From the NCBI GenBank assembly GCA_030700025.1, contig JAUYKI010000017.1, positions 2,748 through 66,747 of the forward strand: a stretch of 64,000 nucleotides of DNA, written 5' to 3'. The DNA comes from a bacterium (GTDB lineage Bacteria > Patescibacteriota > Minisyncoccia > UBA6257 > 02-FULL-45-10c). The first letter of the stretch is position 1. Each line of letters opens with the position of its first letter. Of the stretch, positions 3,400 to 37,750 are shown in pieces. A program made the translations under genes and the position numbers. Below the pieces are notes generated by a model. That model was given only the letters and a program-made list of their open reading frames with translations. It had not been told where the DNA came from and did no database searches.

Positions 3400-4668
3400 A
3401 TGTTTAAAAAGTATGTTTTATCCAGCGGTTTAAGAGTGGTGTTGGCTCCCCAGCCGGACAATGTGGCGGCCACGGTTTTGGTATTGGTAGAGGCGGGATC
3501 AAAATACGAAACCAAAAAAATTAACGGCTTATCTCATTTTTTGGAACATTTATGTTTTAAGGGAACGGCTAAGCGGCCGACGGCGATTGCCATTGCTTCA
3601 GAATTGGAATCTTTGGGAGCGGTTTACAATGCTTTTACCGGGCACGAAGTAACCGGTTATTACGCCAAAGTCGGCGCGTCTAAAATTAATTCGGCTTTGG
3701 ATATTATCGCCGATCTTTATCAGGACCCGGTTTTTGACGAAGCGGAATTTGAAAAAGAAAAAGGAGTTATTATTGAAGAAATTAATTTATACGAAGATAC
3801 GCCGACCCGGAAAGTCCAGGAACTTTTTACGGAATTGATGTACGGCGATCAGCCGGCCGGCTGGCCCATCGGCGGTTTGAAGGAAGTAATTTTGTCGTTA
3901 AAAAAACAGGATGTTTTGAATTACCGCTCGGAGCACTACGTGGCTAAGGCTACGACCGTAGTGGTTGCTGGCGCTTTTAATGAAAAAGAAATGCTGAAAA
4001 GAATAAAAACGCTTTTTGCTAAAACTCCGGCTAACAAAAAATTCTCTAAAATCCGCACTCAAGAATCCCAGGCCCGGCCTCAAACTTTAGTGCGCTTTAA
4101 AAAATCAGACCAAACTCATTTGGTAATGGGCTTCCGGGCATTTGACCGGTACGATAAACGGCAGTACGCGCTGGAAGTTTTAGCGGATATTTTGGGCGGC
4201 GGCATGAGCTCCCGGCTTTTTCAAAGAATCAGGGCAGAATTAGGCGCGGCTTATTACGTTAAAGCCGGAACCGATTTATTTACGGATCATGGATTTTTGT
4301 CCGTATCGGCCGGAGTGGACCACCGGAAATTAAAAGAAGTTATTGAGGCAGCTTTGGGGGAGTTTAAGAAAATTTCTTCGGTTTTGGTAACTTCCAATGA
4401 GCTAGAAAAATCTAAGAATCATTTGACCGGCCAGGCGATGCTGGGTTTGGAAACCTCGGACGCCTTAGCCAGTTTTTACGGAGAACAGGAGATTTTCCAG
4501 GAAAAGATATTGAACCTTCGGGACGTTATTAAAAAAATAGAGGCCGTGACCGCTAAAGACGTTTTAAACGTTGCCCGTGAAATTATGAAGGATAAAAAGT
4601 TGAATTTGGCGCTTATCGGACCGGTCAAGAAGCTTCCGACCGGGCTGGATTTTAGTTTGGGGCGGTAG
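3400..4668 (+). CDS. M16-family zinc metallopeptidase (insulinase/pitrilysin-like)
   Basis: HxxEH inverted zinc-binding motif (HFLEHLCFKGT); 422 aa, typical M16B length and order. Confidence 0.85.
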   Translation: MFKKYVLSSGLRVVLAPQPDNVAATVLVLVEAGSKYETKKINGLSHFLEHLCFKGTAKRPTAIAIASELESLGAVYNAFTGHEVTGYYAKVGASKINSALDIIADLYQDPVFDEAEFEKEKGVIIEEINLYEDTPTRKVQELFTELMYGDQPAGWPIGGLKEVILSLKKQDVLNYRSEHYVAKATTVVVAGAFNEKEMLKRIKTLFAKTPANKKFSKIRTQESQARPQTLVRFKKSDQTHLVMGFRAFDRYDKRQYALEVLADILGGGMSSRLFQRIRAELGAAYYVKAGTDLFTDHGFLSVSAGVDHRKLKEVIEAALGEFKKISSVLVTSNELEKSKNHLTGQAMLGLETSDALASFYGEQEIFQEKILNLRDVIKKIEAVTAKDVLNVAREIMKDKKLNLALIGPVKKLPTGLDFSLGR

Positions 4669-6093: not shown

Positions 6094-7722
6094 ATGTCTA
6101 AGTTCTATATCACTACCTCTATTGCTTATGTTAATGCCGCCCCGCATATTGGTTTTGCGCTGGAAGCGGTTCAGGCGGACGTAGTTGCCCGCTGGCATAA
6201 GCAGGAGGAAGTCTTCTTTTTAACCGGCACAGACGAGCACGGAGCGAAAATTGCCAGGGCCGCGGCCGCCTCGCGCGGCGAGGCGCCGCCGAAAGCGAGC
6301 CTCGCCACTGGCGGGAGCCTCGCCCCAAAGGGGCGGGAAGCCGACAATAAGTTAATAAAAGAATTTGTTGATCAGCAAGCAGAAAAGTTTAAAGCGTTAA
6401 AAAGCGCGCTTAATTTATCCTGGGACAACTTCATCCGGACTTCCGACCAAAAAGTTCATTGGCCGGTGGCGCAAGAAGTCTGGAAGCGGATTGCGGAGGC
6501 GGGCGATTTATATAAAAAAACTTATCAGGGGCTTTATTGCGTCGGCCACGAAGCGTTTGTTACCCAGAAAGACTTAGTGGCGGAAACCCCGACGCTAGAG
6601 GGTCGGGGCTCCGACCGAAGCGCCGGAGATGCCTTAGTATGTAAAGATCATAAAAAAGCCCCGGAGCTTATAGAAGAAGAAAACTGGTTTTTTAAATTAT
6701 CAAAATATACGAAAGATATTGAATTGCGAATAAAGAATGATGAATTACGGATTATTCCGGAAGGCCGGAAAAATGAGGTTTTGGGCTTGCTTAAGGACGA
6801 TCCGGAAGATGGTTCGGCAAGCTCACCACAAGACGTGAGTTTCTCCCGGCCGAGCAAAGACTTAACCTGGGGCGTTCCGGTGCCGGGCGATGATTCGCAA
6901 ACCATGTATGTCTGGGCAGATGCCCTCACGAACTATATTAGCGGTTATGGCGGAGTTAAAAACTGGGAAAAGCATCCGGCGGATATCCATTTTATCGGTA
7001 AAGATATTTTACGTTTTCACGCGATCATTTGGCCGGCGATGCTTTTATCGGCAAAATTGCCCTTGCCGAAAACTATTTTTGTGCACGGCCATATTTTGTC
7101 TGACGGGCAGAAGATGTCTAAATCCTTAGGCAATGTGGTGGATCCGTTTGAATTAGTAAAAAAGTATGGTTCGGCAAGCTCATCACAAGCTGGCACAGAT
7201 GCAGTTCGGTATTTTCTTTTGCGGGAAATTCCGTCGGCGGAAGACGGCGATTTTAGCTATGAAAAATTTACCCAGCGGTATAACGCGGATTTGGCAAACG
7301 GATTAGGTAATTTTGCGGCCCGGGTTTTAACCCTTGCGAGTAATTACAGCGAATATTTTACAATTCACGCTAACCCCCAGAACGTTCACGAGGTGGTTAA
7401 TGACAAAATTAAGGAAACCCAATTATTAGCTAATAAGAAAATCACGGATTTTAAACTTAACGAAGCACTAGAAATAATTTGGAGCTTAATCCATTTTGGG
7501 GATCAGTATATAAATGAAAAAAAACCATGGGAGCGAAAGGATGAAAAAATAATAGAGGCAAATGGCGTAGCGATTCACAGTTCGGTAGCAATTTTAAATA
7601 ACGTGGCGATTTTACTCCAACCATTTTTGCCGGACACCGCGGATAAAATTACCAAGAGCATCGTTTGGGAAGAAGGTAGGCTGGAAATCCAAAAGACCGA
7701 AAATTTATTTCCGAGATTGTAA
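6094..7722 (+). CDS. metG: Methionine--tRNA ligase (core enzyme, no C-terminal tRNA-binding extension)
   Basis: N-terminal HIGH region (YVNAAPHIGFALEA), KMSKS motif (QKMSKSLGN), and the DAVRYFLLREIP anticodon-binding motif. Contains three in-frame low-complexity insertions (see findings). Confidence 0.9.
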   Translation: MSKFYITTSIAYVNAAPHIGFALEAVQADVVARWHKQEEVFFLTGTDEHGAKIARAAAASRGEAPPKASLATGGSLAPKGREADNKLIKEFVDQQAEKFKALKSALNLSWDNFIRTSDQKVHWPVAQEVWKRIAEAGDLYKKTYQGLYCVGHEAFVTQKDLVAETPTLEGRGSDRSAGDALVCKDHKKAPELIEEENWFFKLSKYTKDIELRIKNDELRIIPEGRKNEVLGLLKDDPEDGSASSPQDVSFSRPSKDLTWGVPVPGDDSQTMYVWADALTNYISGYGGVKNWEKHPADIHFIGKDILRFHAIIWPAMLLSAKLPLPKTIFVHGHILSDGQKMSKSLGNVVDPFELVKKYGSASSSQAGTDAVRYFLLREIPSAEDGDFSYEKFTQRYNADLANGLGNFAARVLTLASNYSEYFTIHANPQNVHEVVNDKIKETQLLANKKITDFKLNEALEIIWSLIHFGDQYINEKKPWERKDEKIIEANGVAIHSSVAILNNVAILLQPFLPDTADKITKSIVWEEGRLEIQKTENLFPRL

Positions 7723-7744
7723 TAACCCCGGTACTAAAAAGAAA

Positions 7745-8470
7745 AATCCCCCGACATGCGTCAGGGGAAATGATGATGGGCAACAGTTGCTTTGCAGTGT
7801 TATGAGGTATTAGCCTCTAGCCATAAAGTGGCTGTCTGTTCTGCGTTGCTTCTGTTGCCGTTGACTCGGAATTTTGTCAGGGCGGGTGGACACCGGGTTA
7901 GCTCGCGCGGCTGAAAGAAAGTCAGCCTTCTATTCCCGGCGCCACCTTTGGCAGTGAGATGGTTGTAACACCCCACCGGCCAGCAGCCTGCCCCGACTTT
8001 ACGTCGGGGTCCCCTCCGGCTTGTGACCGGAGGATGATTCCAAATAGCAGTTGCCTTTCGCAGATTATGAGCCTATTGGGCTCTGACCAAAAAAGTGGTC
8101 TTCTTTCTGTTAGCTTCTGTTATTGGATGATTCCGCCCCGACGCTTTGTAAGCCGTCGGGGATACTGCTACTTGGTGAGCCGGTCCTAAGGTAGCGAATC
8201 TTTGGTTTCCTACCCACCAAGATGATGCTTCTTATTGTAGTTAAGGAACGAAAGTAGCGCGATGTGACTCTGCAACTGTCCAGTTTGTGTTGCATCGGAG
8301 CGGAATACCCGGGTGGACGGCCCCAAGGCTCCTACGGCTCTTTGCCTGATCTCGGGTTCTTCCCGACGTCAACCAAGCATTGTAAGAACCAAAGCCAGCA
8401 TCGCTAAGTAAGGATAGCACACCTCAAACCCTTTGTCAATAGCGGGTTTGCAATCTCTAAATTCTAATCC
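7745..8470. other. ORF-free hairpin-rich region of ~700 bp between metG and tatD (candidate structured RNA or decayed element)
   Basis: No ORF longer than 76 codons on either strand. Coding-like GC content. Several strong GC hairpins: CCCCGACtttacGTCGGGG, CCTCCGGcttgtgaCCGGAGG, CCCCGACGctttgtaagcCGTCGGGG. Internal duplicated segment ('GGATGATTCC', 'TTCTGTT…GCTTCTGTT'). Includes a 17-nt string GGTCCTAAGGTAGCGAA identical to a universally conserved 23S rRNA segment, but the flanks are not rRNA-like. Confidence 0.35.
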
Positions 8471-8603
8471 CTAATCTCTAAATAAACTCGAAGCTCAAAT
8501 ATCCGGATTTTTAAATTTTATTTTTGAGATTGGACATTGGAAATTGTTTAGAAATTAGGGTTTAGGAATTAGAAATTTATCAAAACATGTTATTATTAAT
8601 TCC

Positions 8604-9473
8604 ATGAAACTTTTTGATTCTCACACCCACGTTCAATTCTCGGCTTACGATAATGACCGCGAAGAAGTTATTAAACGCGCTCGAGAAGCGGGCGTAAAAA
8701 TGATTTGCGTGGGTACGCAGTTTTCCACTTCCGAGGCGGGGATAAAATTGGCGGAAAAATATCCGGACGATATTTGGGCGTCGGTTGGTTTTCATCCGAA
8801 TCACGCGGTGAGCGAGGGCTGGCATCACGATCCGGACGAACAAAGCGAAGCTCGGCCGGAAAAGTTTGATTCGGACCAATTGGAAAAATTAGCCCTGAAT
8901 CCGAAAGTGGTGGCGATTGGGGAATGCGGATTGGACTACTATAGAATCAGGAATGATGAATTAGGAATTAAGAATAAGCAGAAAGAAGTTTTTTTGGCGC
9001 AAGCGGAGATTGCCCAAAAATTAAATAAAGCCCTTATGATTCATTGCCGTTCCTCGGTTTTGAAAAGCCCCGAAGGTAAATCAATAAAAACTGACGATGC
9101 TTATGAAGACCTATTTAACTTAATGACCAATAACCAATTACCAATAACCAAAGTAATTCACTTTTTTGCCGGGTCTTTAGAAATAGCAAAAAAATTATTA
9201 AATGCCGGCTGTTATTTTACTTTTGGCGGGGTCATAACGTTTACCCGGGATTATGACGAGGCAATTAAATATCTTCCTTTGGACAGAATCCTTTTGGAAA
9301 CCGACGCGCCCTATGTCGCGCCGGAGCCGTACCGGGGGAAGAGGAATGAGCCGGCTTATGTTGTGGAAGTAGCGAAAAAAATGGCGGAGTTCAAAGGCGT
9401 AAGTTTGGAGAAGGTGGCGGAAGCGACCACGCAAAATAACTTGACTATTTTTAGATTATCTGATATTGTATAG
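8604..9473 (+). CDS. tatD: TatD-family metal-dependent hydrolase (DNase)
   Basis: N-terminal FDSHTHV motif, GECGLDYY, and C-terminal LLETDAPY motif. Confidence 0.85.
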   Translation: MKLFDSHTHVQFSAYDNDREEVIKRAREAGVKMICVGTQFSTSEAGIKLAEKYPDDIWASVGFHPNHAVSEGWHHDPDEQSEARPEKFDSDQLEKLALNPKVVAIGECGLDYYRIRNDELGIKNKQKEVFLAQAEIAQKLNKALMIHCRSSVLKSPEGKSIKTDDAYEDLFNLMTNNQLPITKVIHFFAGSLEIAKKLLNAGCYFTFGGVITFTRDYDEAIKYLPLDRILLETDAPYVAPEPYRGKRNEPAYVVEVAKKMAEFKGVSLEKVAEATTQNNLTIFRLSDIV

Positions 9474-9551: not shown

Positions 9552-9920
9552 GTGGGCAAATGGGTGTGGTGGCTCTGGATTTGGCCGGCATCAATTTTGC
9601 ACGCTTTGGATGTGACTACGACTTATGCCGGATTATCCACCGGTAAATTCCAGGAAACCAACCCTCTCATCAGCTCTTTAATTGAGAGATGGGGATTAGA
9701 AGTCGGATTGCTGGCAACGCTGGCAATTAAGATTTTGATCATAGTTGCCGGATGCGCTTTGTGCTGGTCGGCAGCGGAATTACGAAAGATTTTCAAAGAA
9801 TGGGGAGTGATTCTGGTTCCGTGGGCGTTGTCGGTTCTTCTGTACGCATCTTTGGGATTTCATTTGGCAGTCATGGTTTTCGTGGCAATGAATAATTTAA
9901 CAGTTTTGGCTCTGGGTTGA
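9552..9920 (+). CDS. Small integral membrane protein (3-4 TM helices), unknown function
   Basis: GTG start preceded by AAAGGAGG with 8-nt spacing; hydrophobic segments throughout. Confidence 0.5.
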   Translation: MGKWVWWLWIWPASILHALDVTTTYAGLSTGKFQETNPLISSLIERWGLEVGLLATLAIKILIIVAGCALCWSAAELRKIFKEWGVILVPWALSVLLYASLGFHLAVMVFVAMNNLTVLALG

Positions 9921-27473: not shown

Positions 27474-27766
27474 GTTTTTCTTTATCCACAAGGCTTACTT
27501 TACAATGTTTGGCGGTAATTTGCTATAATAGTTTCTAGTTGTGTCGCGTCCATAAAAGGGTTTTTGTTGTTTCTTAGAACCCGGTTGTGAGGACTGGATT
27601 TTGAGAAAGGCAGGTTTGTTTCAAAAAATAAGAATCGAGTGGCGGGTCGAATATTATTTATATAATTTAATTCACCGCGCCCAAGCATTCTTTTTCAAAA
27701 ACAAAACGGAAAGTCTTATGAGCCCTCCGCGGAGTCATAAGACTTGCCAGCCCTTTTATGGGCGTA

Positions 27767-28041
27767 GGGGTCTGTCATAAAATTACTGGCTTAATTTGGA
27801 GGCCTGGATTTGAGACAGGTACGAGACGCGACGACGACAACGTGTCTGAATGAAGGACACGTTGAGGAGGAGTAACGAAGTAGCTGGCCAAAGATAGGCC
27901 TCCCCGAAGGGCCAAAGCATTTTATGGGCTGCGACTGCGTCACTCGTCGTCAATGTAGCTAAAGCTACAATCTCCTCCTCGTTTCTTGTCTCGCTCCAAA
28001 AATGCTATGGTAAATAAGTCATTAATTTTATGACAGACCCC
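27767..28041. repeat. Family-A palindromic element, copy 2
   Basis: 19-bp terminal inverted repeat GGGGTCTGTCATAAAATTA … TAATTTTATGACAGACCCC. This outer stem differs from copies 1 and 3, but the core GTTGAGGAGGAGTAACGAAG … CTCCTCCTCG is conserved. Confidence 0.65.
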
Positions 28042-28151
28042 AGTATGGTATAGTTTAAGTAAGCATTATAAACAAGAACCTATTGAAATGGGTTCGGGCA
28101 ATCGATTTGATAAGGTCGCGATTAGCTCAATTCTAATTTTTCAAAAAAACT

Positions 28152-37543: not shown

Positions 37544-37750
37544 TGGATTCCAATAACTAATTTCTAATATCTAATTTCTAATAAAATGACCGAAATCACA
37601 AACCACAAGCACCAAATCACAAACAAGCACCAATGACCAAAATCATAAATTTAAAACCCGTTTGGAATTTCTATTATTTGAATTTAGAATTTGTTTGTAA
37701 TTTGAGATTTGTAATTTGGAATTTTATCAGAAATTGTAAATTGTAAATTT

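Follow-up and report, generated by a model that had tools for sequence, protein, structure and literature searches.

Large structured RNAs of bacteria such as OLE, ROOL and GOLLD are non-coding transcripts of 0.4-0.8 kb that possess many covarying helices together with their own promoter and terminator, have a patchy distribution across variable genomic sites, and remain obscure in their biochemical role. Here we describe a candidate gene for an RNA that resembles them in all these respects (its promoter and terminator being predicted), which lies at positions 7739-8404 on the minus strand of a 64,000-nucleotide stretch of Patescibacteriota DNA (assembly GCA_030700025.1, contig JAUYKI010000017.1, positions 2,748 to 66,747; referred to below as the window), between a metG-like and a tatD-like gene. 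In contrast to OLE, ROOL and GOLLD, to none of which it has a match in sequence or structure, the new RNA has a host from the candidate phyla radiation (CPR), is known from only five lineages, undergoes unusually quick modular turnover and appears to bear an antisense copy of a piece of 23S ribosomal RNA (rRNA); to our knowledge, no such segment exists in the OLE, ROOL or GOLLD classes. It is a member of no described family and, in kind, a large structured bacterial RNA of obscure role.

A continuous antisense match of 14-18 nt to a universal rRNA segment, carried by a structured RNA, is a property that the new RNA has in common with the C/D box small RNAs (sRNAs) and the U3/U8-type small nucleolar RNAs (snoRNAs) that serve as guides or chaperones in eukaryotes and archaea. 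It lacks, however, a C box, a guide-adjacent D box and any H/ACA architecture, is far larger than these RNAs and has a bacterial host; we know of no bacterial proteins equivalent to the partners of snoRNAs and C/D RNAs. It also resembles trans-encoded bacterial sRNAs, in having its own gene, a predicted sigma-70 promoter, a predicted intrinsic terminator and a short potential seed in or near a loop, but is 5-10 times larger and has rRNA rather than mRNA as its apparent target. Finally, the guides of CPR group I introns at 23S positions 1917, 1931 and 1952 are likewise antisense to the exon at those sites (PMC11270868), whereas the new RNA lies outside rRNA genes, has no detectable group I core, would form an A-U instead of a G·U pair at 1931, and carries its far longer antisense stretch internally.

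A candidate RNA gene between metG and tatD

The sequence at 7739-8404 is very probably the gene of a structured non-coding RNA (ncRNA) encoded on the minus strand, as judged from its predicted fold, its flanking signals and its relatives. The region is dense in hairpins, as the initial annotation of this DNA had noted, and the minimum free energy (MFE) of its minus strand lies further below that of shuffled sequences (z = -10.0) than does that of its plus strand (z = -5.1). The strand is settled by several conserved G·U pairs, found in P1, P2, P4, P6 and a long-range helix, that would become A·C on the plus strand. Transcription is inferred from promoter-like and terminator-like signals, the start being placed near 8404 by the predicted, near-consensus promoter. 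Consensus predictions place the same TTGACA-17-TGnTATNNT arrangement at a fixed distance from helix P1 in the window and in all four homologous elements (on contigs L017, L004, L015 and L011), each of which also ends in a predicted minus-strand terminator. In the window, a simple signal scan identified this terminator as a 9-bp stem (7768-7747) followed by TTTTTCTTTT. The gene is therefore oriented divergently from tatD and convergently with metG.

The homologues were sought on contigs encoding the nearest relatives of MetG and TatD, using nhmmer and covariance model (CM) searches. Each was found downstream of metG on the minus strand, and a MetG tree places the five host lineages in one clade. 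The shared body has a pairwise identity of 69-81% with many indels. A model-based alignment of the core in four sequences contains 28 pairs, in which 98% of cells are paired and six pairs are changed on both sides. This number of double changes was attained in 0 of 500 column shuffles, and when the partners were slid by 1-3 columns pairing dropped to 32-57% and double changes to 0-1. Similarly, among six copies of an internal module of ~80 nt, 96% of the cells of 17 pairs are paired and six pairs show double changes. The covariation that the initial annotation had suggested looking for in relatives is therefore present, with helices backed by compensatory changes in the core (6/28) as well as in the module (6/17), although with a sample of four to six related sequences these counts support the fold and do not amount to a formal test. 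Together, homologues, covariation and a conserved promoter and terminator bear out the earlier proposal of a large structured ncRNA of GOLLD or ROOL size.

We looked for known families using Rfam 15, whose models include ROOL, GOLLD, OLE, HEARO, raiA, RNase P, transfer-messenger RNA (tmRNA), signal recognition particle RNA, 6S RNA, group I and II introns and glmS. At the gathering score the window gave six transfer RNAs (tRNAs), all of them outside the region, in line with the initial view that no recognised family is present. Lowering the threshold to E<=10 on 7600-8700 gave sub-threshold microRNA-type matches to an AT-rich palindrome and no large-RNA family; the homologues likewise had no Rfam match, and ARAGORN detected no tRNA or tmRNA in the region. 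The suggestion of a decayed gene was not sustained: seven open reading frames (ORFs) had no Pfam match at E<=1, and tblastn gave no pseudogene signal, the proteins found at this site in contigs L006, L008, L009 and L015 producing short matches only (E>=0.009). Thus, neither an Rfam match nor a BLASTX-type pseudogene signal, which the initial annotation had named as findings that would speak against its proposal, was obtained. A literature search found no described large ncRNA of CPR bacteria.

Two further candidates were tried and rejected. A C/D box guide RNA would call for box motifs, and there is no RUGAUGA in any homologue and no CUGA adjoining the guide. For the second, a plus-strand group I intron of 23S site 1917 followed by its 3' exon, we found no remnant of the 5' exon and no Rfam match, and this candidate was rejected also because the G·U evidence points to the minus strand.

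The best named matches of the MetG protein (~55-64% identity) are from Harrisonbacteria and Patescibacteria, indicating a Parcubacteria-like CPR host. In contigs L006, L008 and L009, which lie just outside the clade, neither nhmmer nor the core covariance model detected the element, and unrelated hypothetical protein genes fill the site between metG and tatD. Within the clade, even close relatives differ through a quick gain and loss of domains, as seen in the P1 insert, in module A and in an insert of ~190 nt in the RNA of L004. The most divergent element, that of L011, retains the promoter, P1, the conserved stretch next to it and the terminator; its 3' body is wholly different and has no rRNA complementarity. 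Wider searches were made with exact-pattern scans, which demand exact matches and could miss diverged relatives. In the representatives of GTDB species the pattern CTACCTTAGGACCN{6,12}AAGTAGCAG gave 0 matches; the pattern ATCGCRCTRCYWTYGTTCYTTRA gave chance matches alone (L012-L014) in GTDB species representatives and JGI metagenomes; and pattern scans of IMG/VR viral contigs gave chance matches or none. There was no blastn match in phage and plasmid collections. Since these searches found no relatives, the family is known solely from contigs reached through relatives of MetG and TatD. Covariance models of the core (R1) and of the module (R2), run on the window and on ~90 kb of related loci, recovered only elements that were already known, with no second copies. 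Taken together, the RNA family looks new, rare and fast-evolving, and has so far been seen in one small Parcubacteria-like CPR clade.

The antisense match to 23S rRNA

The initial annotation had pointed out a plus-strand 17-mer, GGTCCTAAGGTAGCGAA, said to be identical to a conserved 23S rRNA segment in helix 71 (H71), to lie at 8184-8200 and to have neighbours that are not rRNA. The identity holds, at 8182-8198. With the C that precedes it, the exact match to the 23S rRNA of Escherichia coli, whose rRNAs serve as the reference throughout, has a length of 18 nt (8181-8198, equivalent to 23S 1920-1937), a segment that, by E. coli numbering, we take to be the 3' strand of helix 69 (H69) and the run into H70 rather than H71 proper. 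Because the transcript would be made from the minus strand, whereas the plus strand had been implicitly assumed, the string is antisense to 23S rRNA; it is therefore no mimic, and the idea of an rRNA-mimic regulatory leader finds no support.

At the level of sequence, this antisense match was shown to be both non-random and conserved. The elements of the window, L017, L004 and L015 have exact antisense matches of 18, 16, 16 and 15 nt (four homologues) that start at 23S 1920 or 1921, and a core of 14 nt, GCUACCUUAGGACC, complementary to 23S 1921-1934, is invariant in all four while its flanks vary. It is one of three blocks of at least 14 nt that are invariant in the four sequences, the other two being those that form the outer stem of Module B. 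In 5000 dinucleotide-preserving shuffles of the element, exact matches to E. coli rRNA of >=14 nt arose in 1.9%, of >=16 nt in 0.16% and of >=18 nt in a single shuffle (1/5000; 0.02%). When sliding windows from the five RNAs were compared with both strands of 16S, 23S and 5S rRNA, the anti-23S region alone stood out (z 5.4-7.7). The RNA of L011 gave no rRNA-related signal in this comparison, and the anti-23S segment was not found in it. Within the window and the fetched loci, we found no antisense targets.

The initial statement on the neighbouring sequence holds only in part, for this sequence also resembles rRNA, in a form degraded by small deletions. A profile of the core from the four homologues can be aligned with antisense 23S 1920-1965 (E=6e-4) if three small deletions are allowed, and degenerate, collinear complementarity runs 5'-ward from the 18-mer through the 5' strand of helix P2 to an AUCAUC motif. 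Predicted duplexes with 23S 1900-1985 have energies of -49 to -65 kcal/mol, as compared with -44 to -49 ± 3.5 for controls with a shuffled upstream flank; the duplexes of L017 and L015 are clearly more stable than these controls, that of the window is marginally so (p ~0.02), and for L004 the difference is not significant. Based on the profile alignment and the duplex energies, the 5' strand and the apical region of P2 look like a diverged antisense copy of 23S ~1920-1965 in which only the core of 14-18 nt is fixed. Elsewhere in the RNA there is no extended rRNA homology. Predicted local pairings of the 14-mer differ among homologues and its predicted accessibility is only average; no conserved intramolecular partner for it was found among the four.

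Two short similarities to 16S rRNA were also seen. The 10-mer GGCUGCUGGC at 7978-7987, present in L017 and L015 too, is antisense to 16S 517-526 in the 530-loop region, and is at chance level, about three such 10-mers being expected per sequence. A hairpin of Module B matches 16S at 15/16 positions, in the window only.

In a survey of CPR rRNA genes (Tsurumaki et al., J Bacteriol 2024; PMC11270868), 82% of 23S genes carried insertions, 45% of the 23S insertions could be identified by the Rfam model as group I introns, and LAGLIDADG_1 genes lay mostly in insertions at 23S positions 1917, 1931, 1952, 2593, 2604 and 2657. The hot spots at 1917, 1931 and 1952 are inside the segment targeted by the antisense match or 2-3 nt from it, and the invariant core runs unbroken across the 1931 junction. 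We treat this overlap as a lead, not as a test.

Elements of the RNA and features of the locus

From 5' to 3', the predicted RNA consists of P1 with its insert, a conserved stretch, a three-way junction of P2 and P3, Module A where present, P4, P6, P5, Module B and the terminator, with one or two copies of the ~80-nt module per RNA (Table 1).

Table 1. Coordinates of the predicted RNA, its elements, its neighbours and its homologues
Feature	Sequence	Position	Strand	Details
Predicted ncRNA transcript, ~666 nt	Window	7739-8404	-	Bounds from predicted promoter and terminator; MFE z; nhmmer and CM homologues
Predicted sigma-70 promoter	Window	8411-8439	-	-35 TTGACA 8439-8434; 17-nt spacer; extended -10 TGcTATCCT ending at 8411
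P1	Window	8259-8404	-	GCGAUG 8404-8399 pairs with CAUCGC 8264-8259; 134-nt insert inside
Conserved stretch 3' of P1, GCUACUUUCGUUCCUUAAC	Window	8240-8258	-	In all five homologues
Long-range helix, predicted (RNAalifold)	Window	GUUCC 8249-8245 / GGAAU 8134-8130	-	Closes the P2-P3 junction
Anti-23S segment	Window	8181-8228	-	Exact 18-mer UUCGCUACCUUAGGACCG at 8198-8181
P2	Window	8171-8221	-	CUUGGUGGG 8221-8213 pairs with CUCACCAAG 8179-8171
P3 hairpin	Window	8136-8161	-	CCCCGACGG...CGUCGGGG; eight pairs, three changed on both sides among homologues
Module A, ~80 nt, four helices	Window	8043-8124	-	Between direct repeats GGAAUCAUCC (8134-8125, 8041-8032)
P4 hairpin	Window	8013-8033	-	CCUCCGGU-CACAA-GCCGGAGG
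Extra hairpin CCCCGAC-GUAAA-GUCGGGG	Window	7991-8009	-	Stem sequence same as P3
P6 hairpin	Window	7953-7977	-	GGUGGGGUG...CAUCUCACU; three G·U pairs
P5	Window	7885-7946	-	GGUGGCGCCGGG 7946-7935 pairs with CCCGGUGUCCACC 7897-7885
Module B, second copy of ~80-nt module	Window	7779-7859	-	Outer stem GGCAACAG/CUGUUGCC
Predicted intrinsic terminator	Window	7736-7768	-	UCCCCUGACG-CAUG-UGUCGGGGGA, then UUUUUCUUUUU
metG-like ORF	Window	6094-7722	+	
tatD-like ORF	Window	8604-9473	+	
Homologous element	L017	622 to 59	-	564 nt; via TatD, 73% identical
Homologous element	L004 (and L005)	6152 to 5389	-	764 nt; via MetG, 72% identical
Homologous element	L015	4438 to 3766	-	~673 nt; via MetG P0019
Homologous element	L011	11889 to 11455	-	435 nt; via MetG P0007

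P1 is kept in all five homologues around an insert that varies from 17 to 134 nt, the largest size being peculiar to the window genome. GCGAUG/CAUCGC is the form seen in most lineages; in L017 the helix is ACGUUGU/ACAGCGU, altered on both sides at several pairs, and in L011 one G·U is retained. The conserved stretch that follows includes an identical 24-mer common to L004 and L011. The long-range helix is 100% paired in four sequences and has zero double changes. P2 has ten pairs, including a conserved G·U, of which three are changed on both sides, and its apical region (33 nt in the window, 33-37 nt across homologues) bears the anti-23S core. The closing pairs of P4 covary, being G-C/U·G in the window, A-U/C-G in L004 and A-U/U-A in L015. 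Module A is found in the window and L017 only, and in L004 and L015 GGAAUCAUCC leads directly to P4. The extra hairpin is seen only in the window genome and not in L017, L015 or L004, which at the site of P6 have a hairpin formed from different sequence. P5, in which GGUGGCGCCG is invariant in four homologues, has a variable apical part (hairpin 7909-7927) and little covariation, and is thus less strongly supported. Among blocks that are invariant in four homologues, the two stem strands of Module B (14 and 15 nt) are the longest.

The initial annotation had regarded two CCCCGAC/GTCGGGG hairpins as paralogous. Both are present (7991-8009 and 8136-8161), but they are not collinear paralogues. 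Instead, GGATGATTCC occurs as two direct-repeat copies (8032-8041 and 8125-8134) that flank one copy of the module, and the true internal duplication is that of the ~80-nt module itself (7779-7859 and 8043-8124; 75% identity). In L015, a 59-codon ORF with a Shine-Dalgarno sequence upstream has no Pfam match; the terminator of the L015 element is homologous to that of L004.

The earlier description of the gap itself agrees with our measurements. The metG-tatD spacing of 881 nt is exceeded by a single other gap of this tightly packed window, most of whose gaps are ~50-250 nt; its longest ORF has 76 codons (7959-8189, plus strand); and its composition is not AT-rich, with a G+C of 0.53 over 7739-8404 against 0.45 window-wide. 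The AT-rich part, with a G+C of 0.27, is limited to the final ~160 nt ahead of tatD (8441-8600). There, between the ncRNA promoter and the start of tatD, lies an imperfect AT-rich palindrome (8452-8577; 52-nt arms, 75% complementary), which is the source of spurious plant-microRNA Rfam matches, is not present in the closest relative, L017, and has a weak likeness to a stretch near 37,590-37,740 (nhmmer E = 0.05). Downstream of tatD, a DUF5658 gene is found in the window (9552-9920), in L004 (7205-7567) and, weakly, in L017 (1648-2016), all three of which carry the RNA; no such gene follows tatD in L006, L008 and L019, the genomes being too few to establish an association.

Between the terminator and the metG stop codon, L004 (5172-5385; 210 nt) and L015 (3243-3765; 520 nt) have extra non-coding, partly GC-rich DNA that has no counterpart in the window and no Rfam match. 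Several independent assemblies break within ~120 nt of the locus, at the end of L010 and at the start of L016 and of L019-L021, with break points 117 nt past metG and 79 nt and 36 nt ahead of tatD, which suggests that strains vary at this site or that its sequence is difficult to assemble.

Among tRNA genes at 27,500-28,150, the window has another stretch that is poor in ORFs and strongly structured. Its segment 27,766-28,048, closed by a 19-bp stem (GGGGUCUGUCAUAAAAUUA / UAAUUUUAUGACAGACCCC), has an MFE z of -8.8 on the plus and -7.7 on the minus strand and no Rfam match at E<=0.1. It could be a further uncatalogued RNA or a small inverted-repeat element.

Proposed action on 23S rRNA and competing explanations

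As the best explanation of the whole, to which we assign a probability of roughly 0.4, we propose that the element is a minus-strand ncRNA of an uncatalogued CPR family that acts by pairing with 23S rRNA. The pairing mechanism, taken on its own, is put forward tentatively. The RNA would act in trans, with the apical core nucleating pairing with 23S rRNA, with its precursor or with a form that has just been spliced. The target would be the 3' strand of H69 together with H70/H71, which belong to the bridge-forming core of large-subunit rRNA. Pairing would then extend toward H71 through the opening of P2, and the remainder of the RNA would provide a scaffold. As H69 could not form while so paired, effects would be expected on the joining of subunits, on the folding of the late 50S particle or on what becomes of 23S molecules freed of their 1931 and 1952 introns. 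In this way the RNA may interfere with, or supervise, the formation of H69-H71, either in the course of late 50S maturation or once introns have been removed. That an ornate RNA pairs with H69-H71 specifically as a snoRNA-like folding chaperone, as a sensor of spliced 23S or as a ribosome-silencing factor is possible, though less likely than not.

Several observations weigh against this explanation. We know of no bacterial precedent for such a mechanism or for such roles. The target is base-paired and partly buried in the mature ribosome, and pairing would therefore need an assembly intermediate. The element of L011 has no anti-23S segment, so that a function in rRNA pairing cannot hold for the family as a whole. 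Complementarity of the flanks is significant in only two of the four homologues, the flanks score weakly in plain alignment tests, and the indel-decayed state of the sequence around the core is as compatible with a captured piece of ribosomal DNA (rDNA) as with selection for pairing. The mean unpaired probability of the 14-mer (0.18-0.59, as compared with 0.35-0.42 for the whole RNA) differs between homologues. In addition, the covariation statistics, from four or five related sequences, are weak and inflated by shared ancestry.

The main rival explanation is that the RNA is an ornate scaffold with a ribosome-independent function, for instance as a scaffold for proteins or as a self-assembling RNA, in which the 23S-like stretch is an rDNA relic captured within P2 and kept today for the sake of structure or protein binding. 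Its strongest argument comes from L011, in which the promoter, P1, the conserved stretch and the terminator enclose a different body without rRNA complementarity; the quick turnover of domains between closely related lineages (P1 insert, module A, ~190-nt insert of L004), the decay by indels of the 23S similarity outside the core and the lack of any relation to rRNA of the other two longest invariant blocks all fit as well. However, a relic would leave unexplained why exactly the 14 nt that are identical to rDNA are invariant amid varying flanks, and an intramolecular partner that might have conserved the 14-mer was not found. We consider this explanation possible, though on the unlikely side. 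The remaining explanations are less likely. It is improbable that the feature acts at the level of DNA, with the plus strand forming an ectopic, partly intact target of the LAGLIDADG homing endonucleases of CPR 23S introns (sites 1931 and 1952), which would span ~20 bp centred on the insertion site, that marks the landing site or scar of a mobile element. While the 18-mer spans site 1931, the similarity begins 2-3 nt past 1917, sister lineages hold unrelated hypothetical genes in the metG-tatD gap and several assemblies are broken at the locus, the left side of the 1931 target (1921-1931) is intact in four homologues but only ~3-6 bp are conserved to its right, site 1952 is disrupted by a deletion, and no intron or endonuclease gene is present; nor does a DNA target account for the conserved promoter, terminator and covarying helices.

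A free-standing, degenerate group I intron derived from site 1931, whose enlarged guide would bind ligated exons or intron-less 23S, appears very improbable. Its guide would be continuous antisense of the exon junction, and the core is indeed continuous over 1931|1932. In group I introns, however, guide and exon almost always form a U·G wobble where cleavage takes place, and the base opposite U1931 is an A, not a G; moreover, the segment is located away from the 5' end of the RNA. These CPR sites are rich in group I introns (PMC11270868), yet there is no match to Intron_gpI (RF00028) at E<=10, even though this model classifies 45% of CPR 23S insertions. Harder still to credit is that the RNA serves a small membrane protein, as a long cis leader or with a dual function. 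This idea comes from L015, where AAAGGAGG-N8-ATG and a 59-codon hydrophobic ORF (3817-3996, minus strand) lie between the last module and the terminator. The ORF is not found in the window, L017, L004 or L011, where the terminator directly follows the last module, and tblastn detected no trace of the L015 peptide. The least probable of the explanations considered is a plus-strand one, either an rRNA-mimic leader produced when transcription of metG reads through, or else a decayed protein gene. The sense string of 23S is on the plus strand, which folds more stably than its shuffles (z = -5.1), but the conserved G·U pairs would turn into A·C there, all five lineages have the predicted promoter and terminator on the minus strand, and neither Pfam matches nor tblastn similarity were found.

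CPR bacteria, or Patescibacteria, account for much of the diversity of bacteria; their ribosomes are reduced, their rRNA genes are laden with introns, and their ncRNAs have hardly been explored. In this setting, an RNA of ~0.4-0.8 kb with a strong predicted promoter would enlarge the short list of large structured bacterial RNAs, and its conserved antisense match to H69-H71 gives rise to a concrete hypothesis, namely that the RNA reads or masks one piece of 23S rRNA. If this hypothesis is false, the locus still documents how a piece of rDNA can be incorporated into the gene of a structured RNA; if it is true, the RNA would be a first example of RNA-rRNA recognition in trans in bacterial ribosome biogenesis or control.

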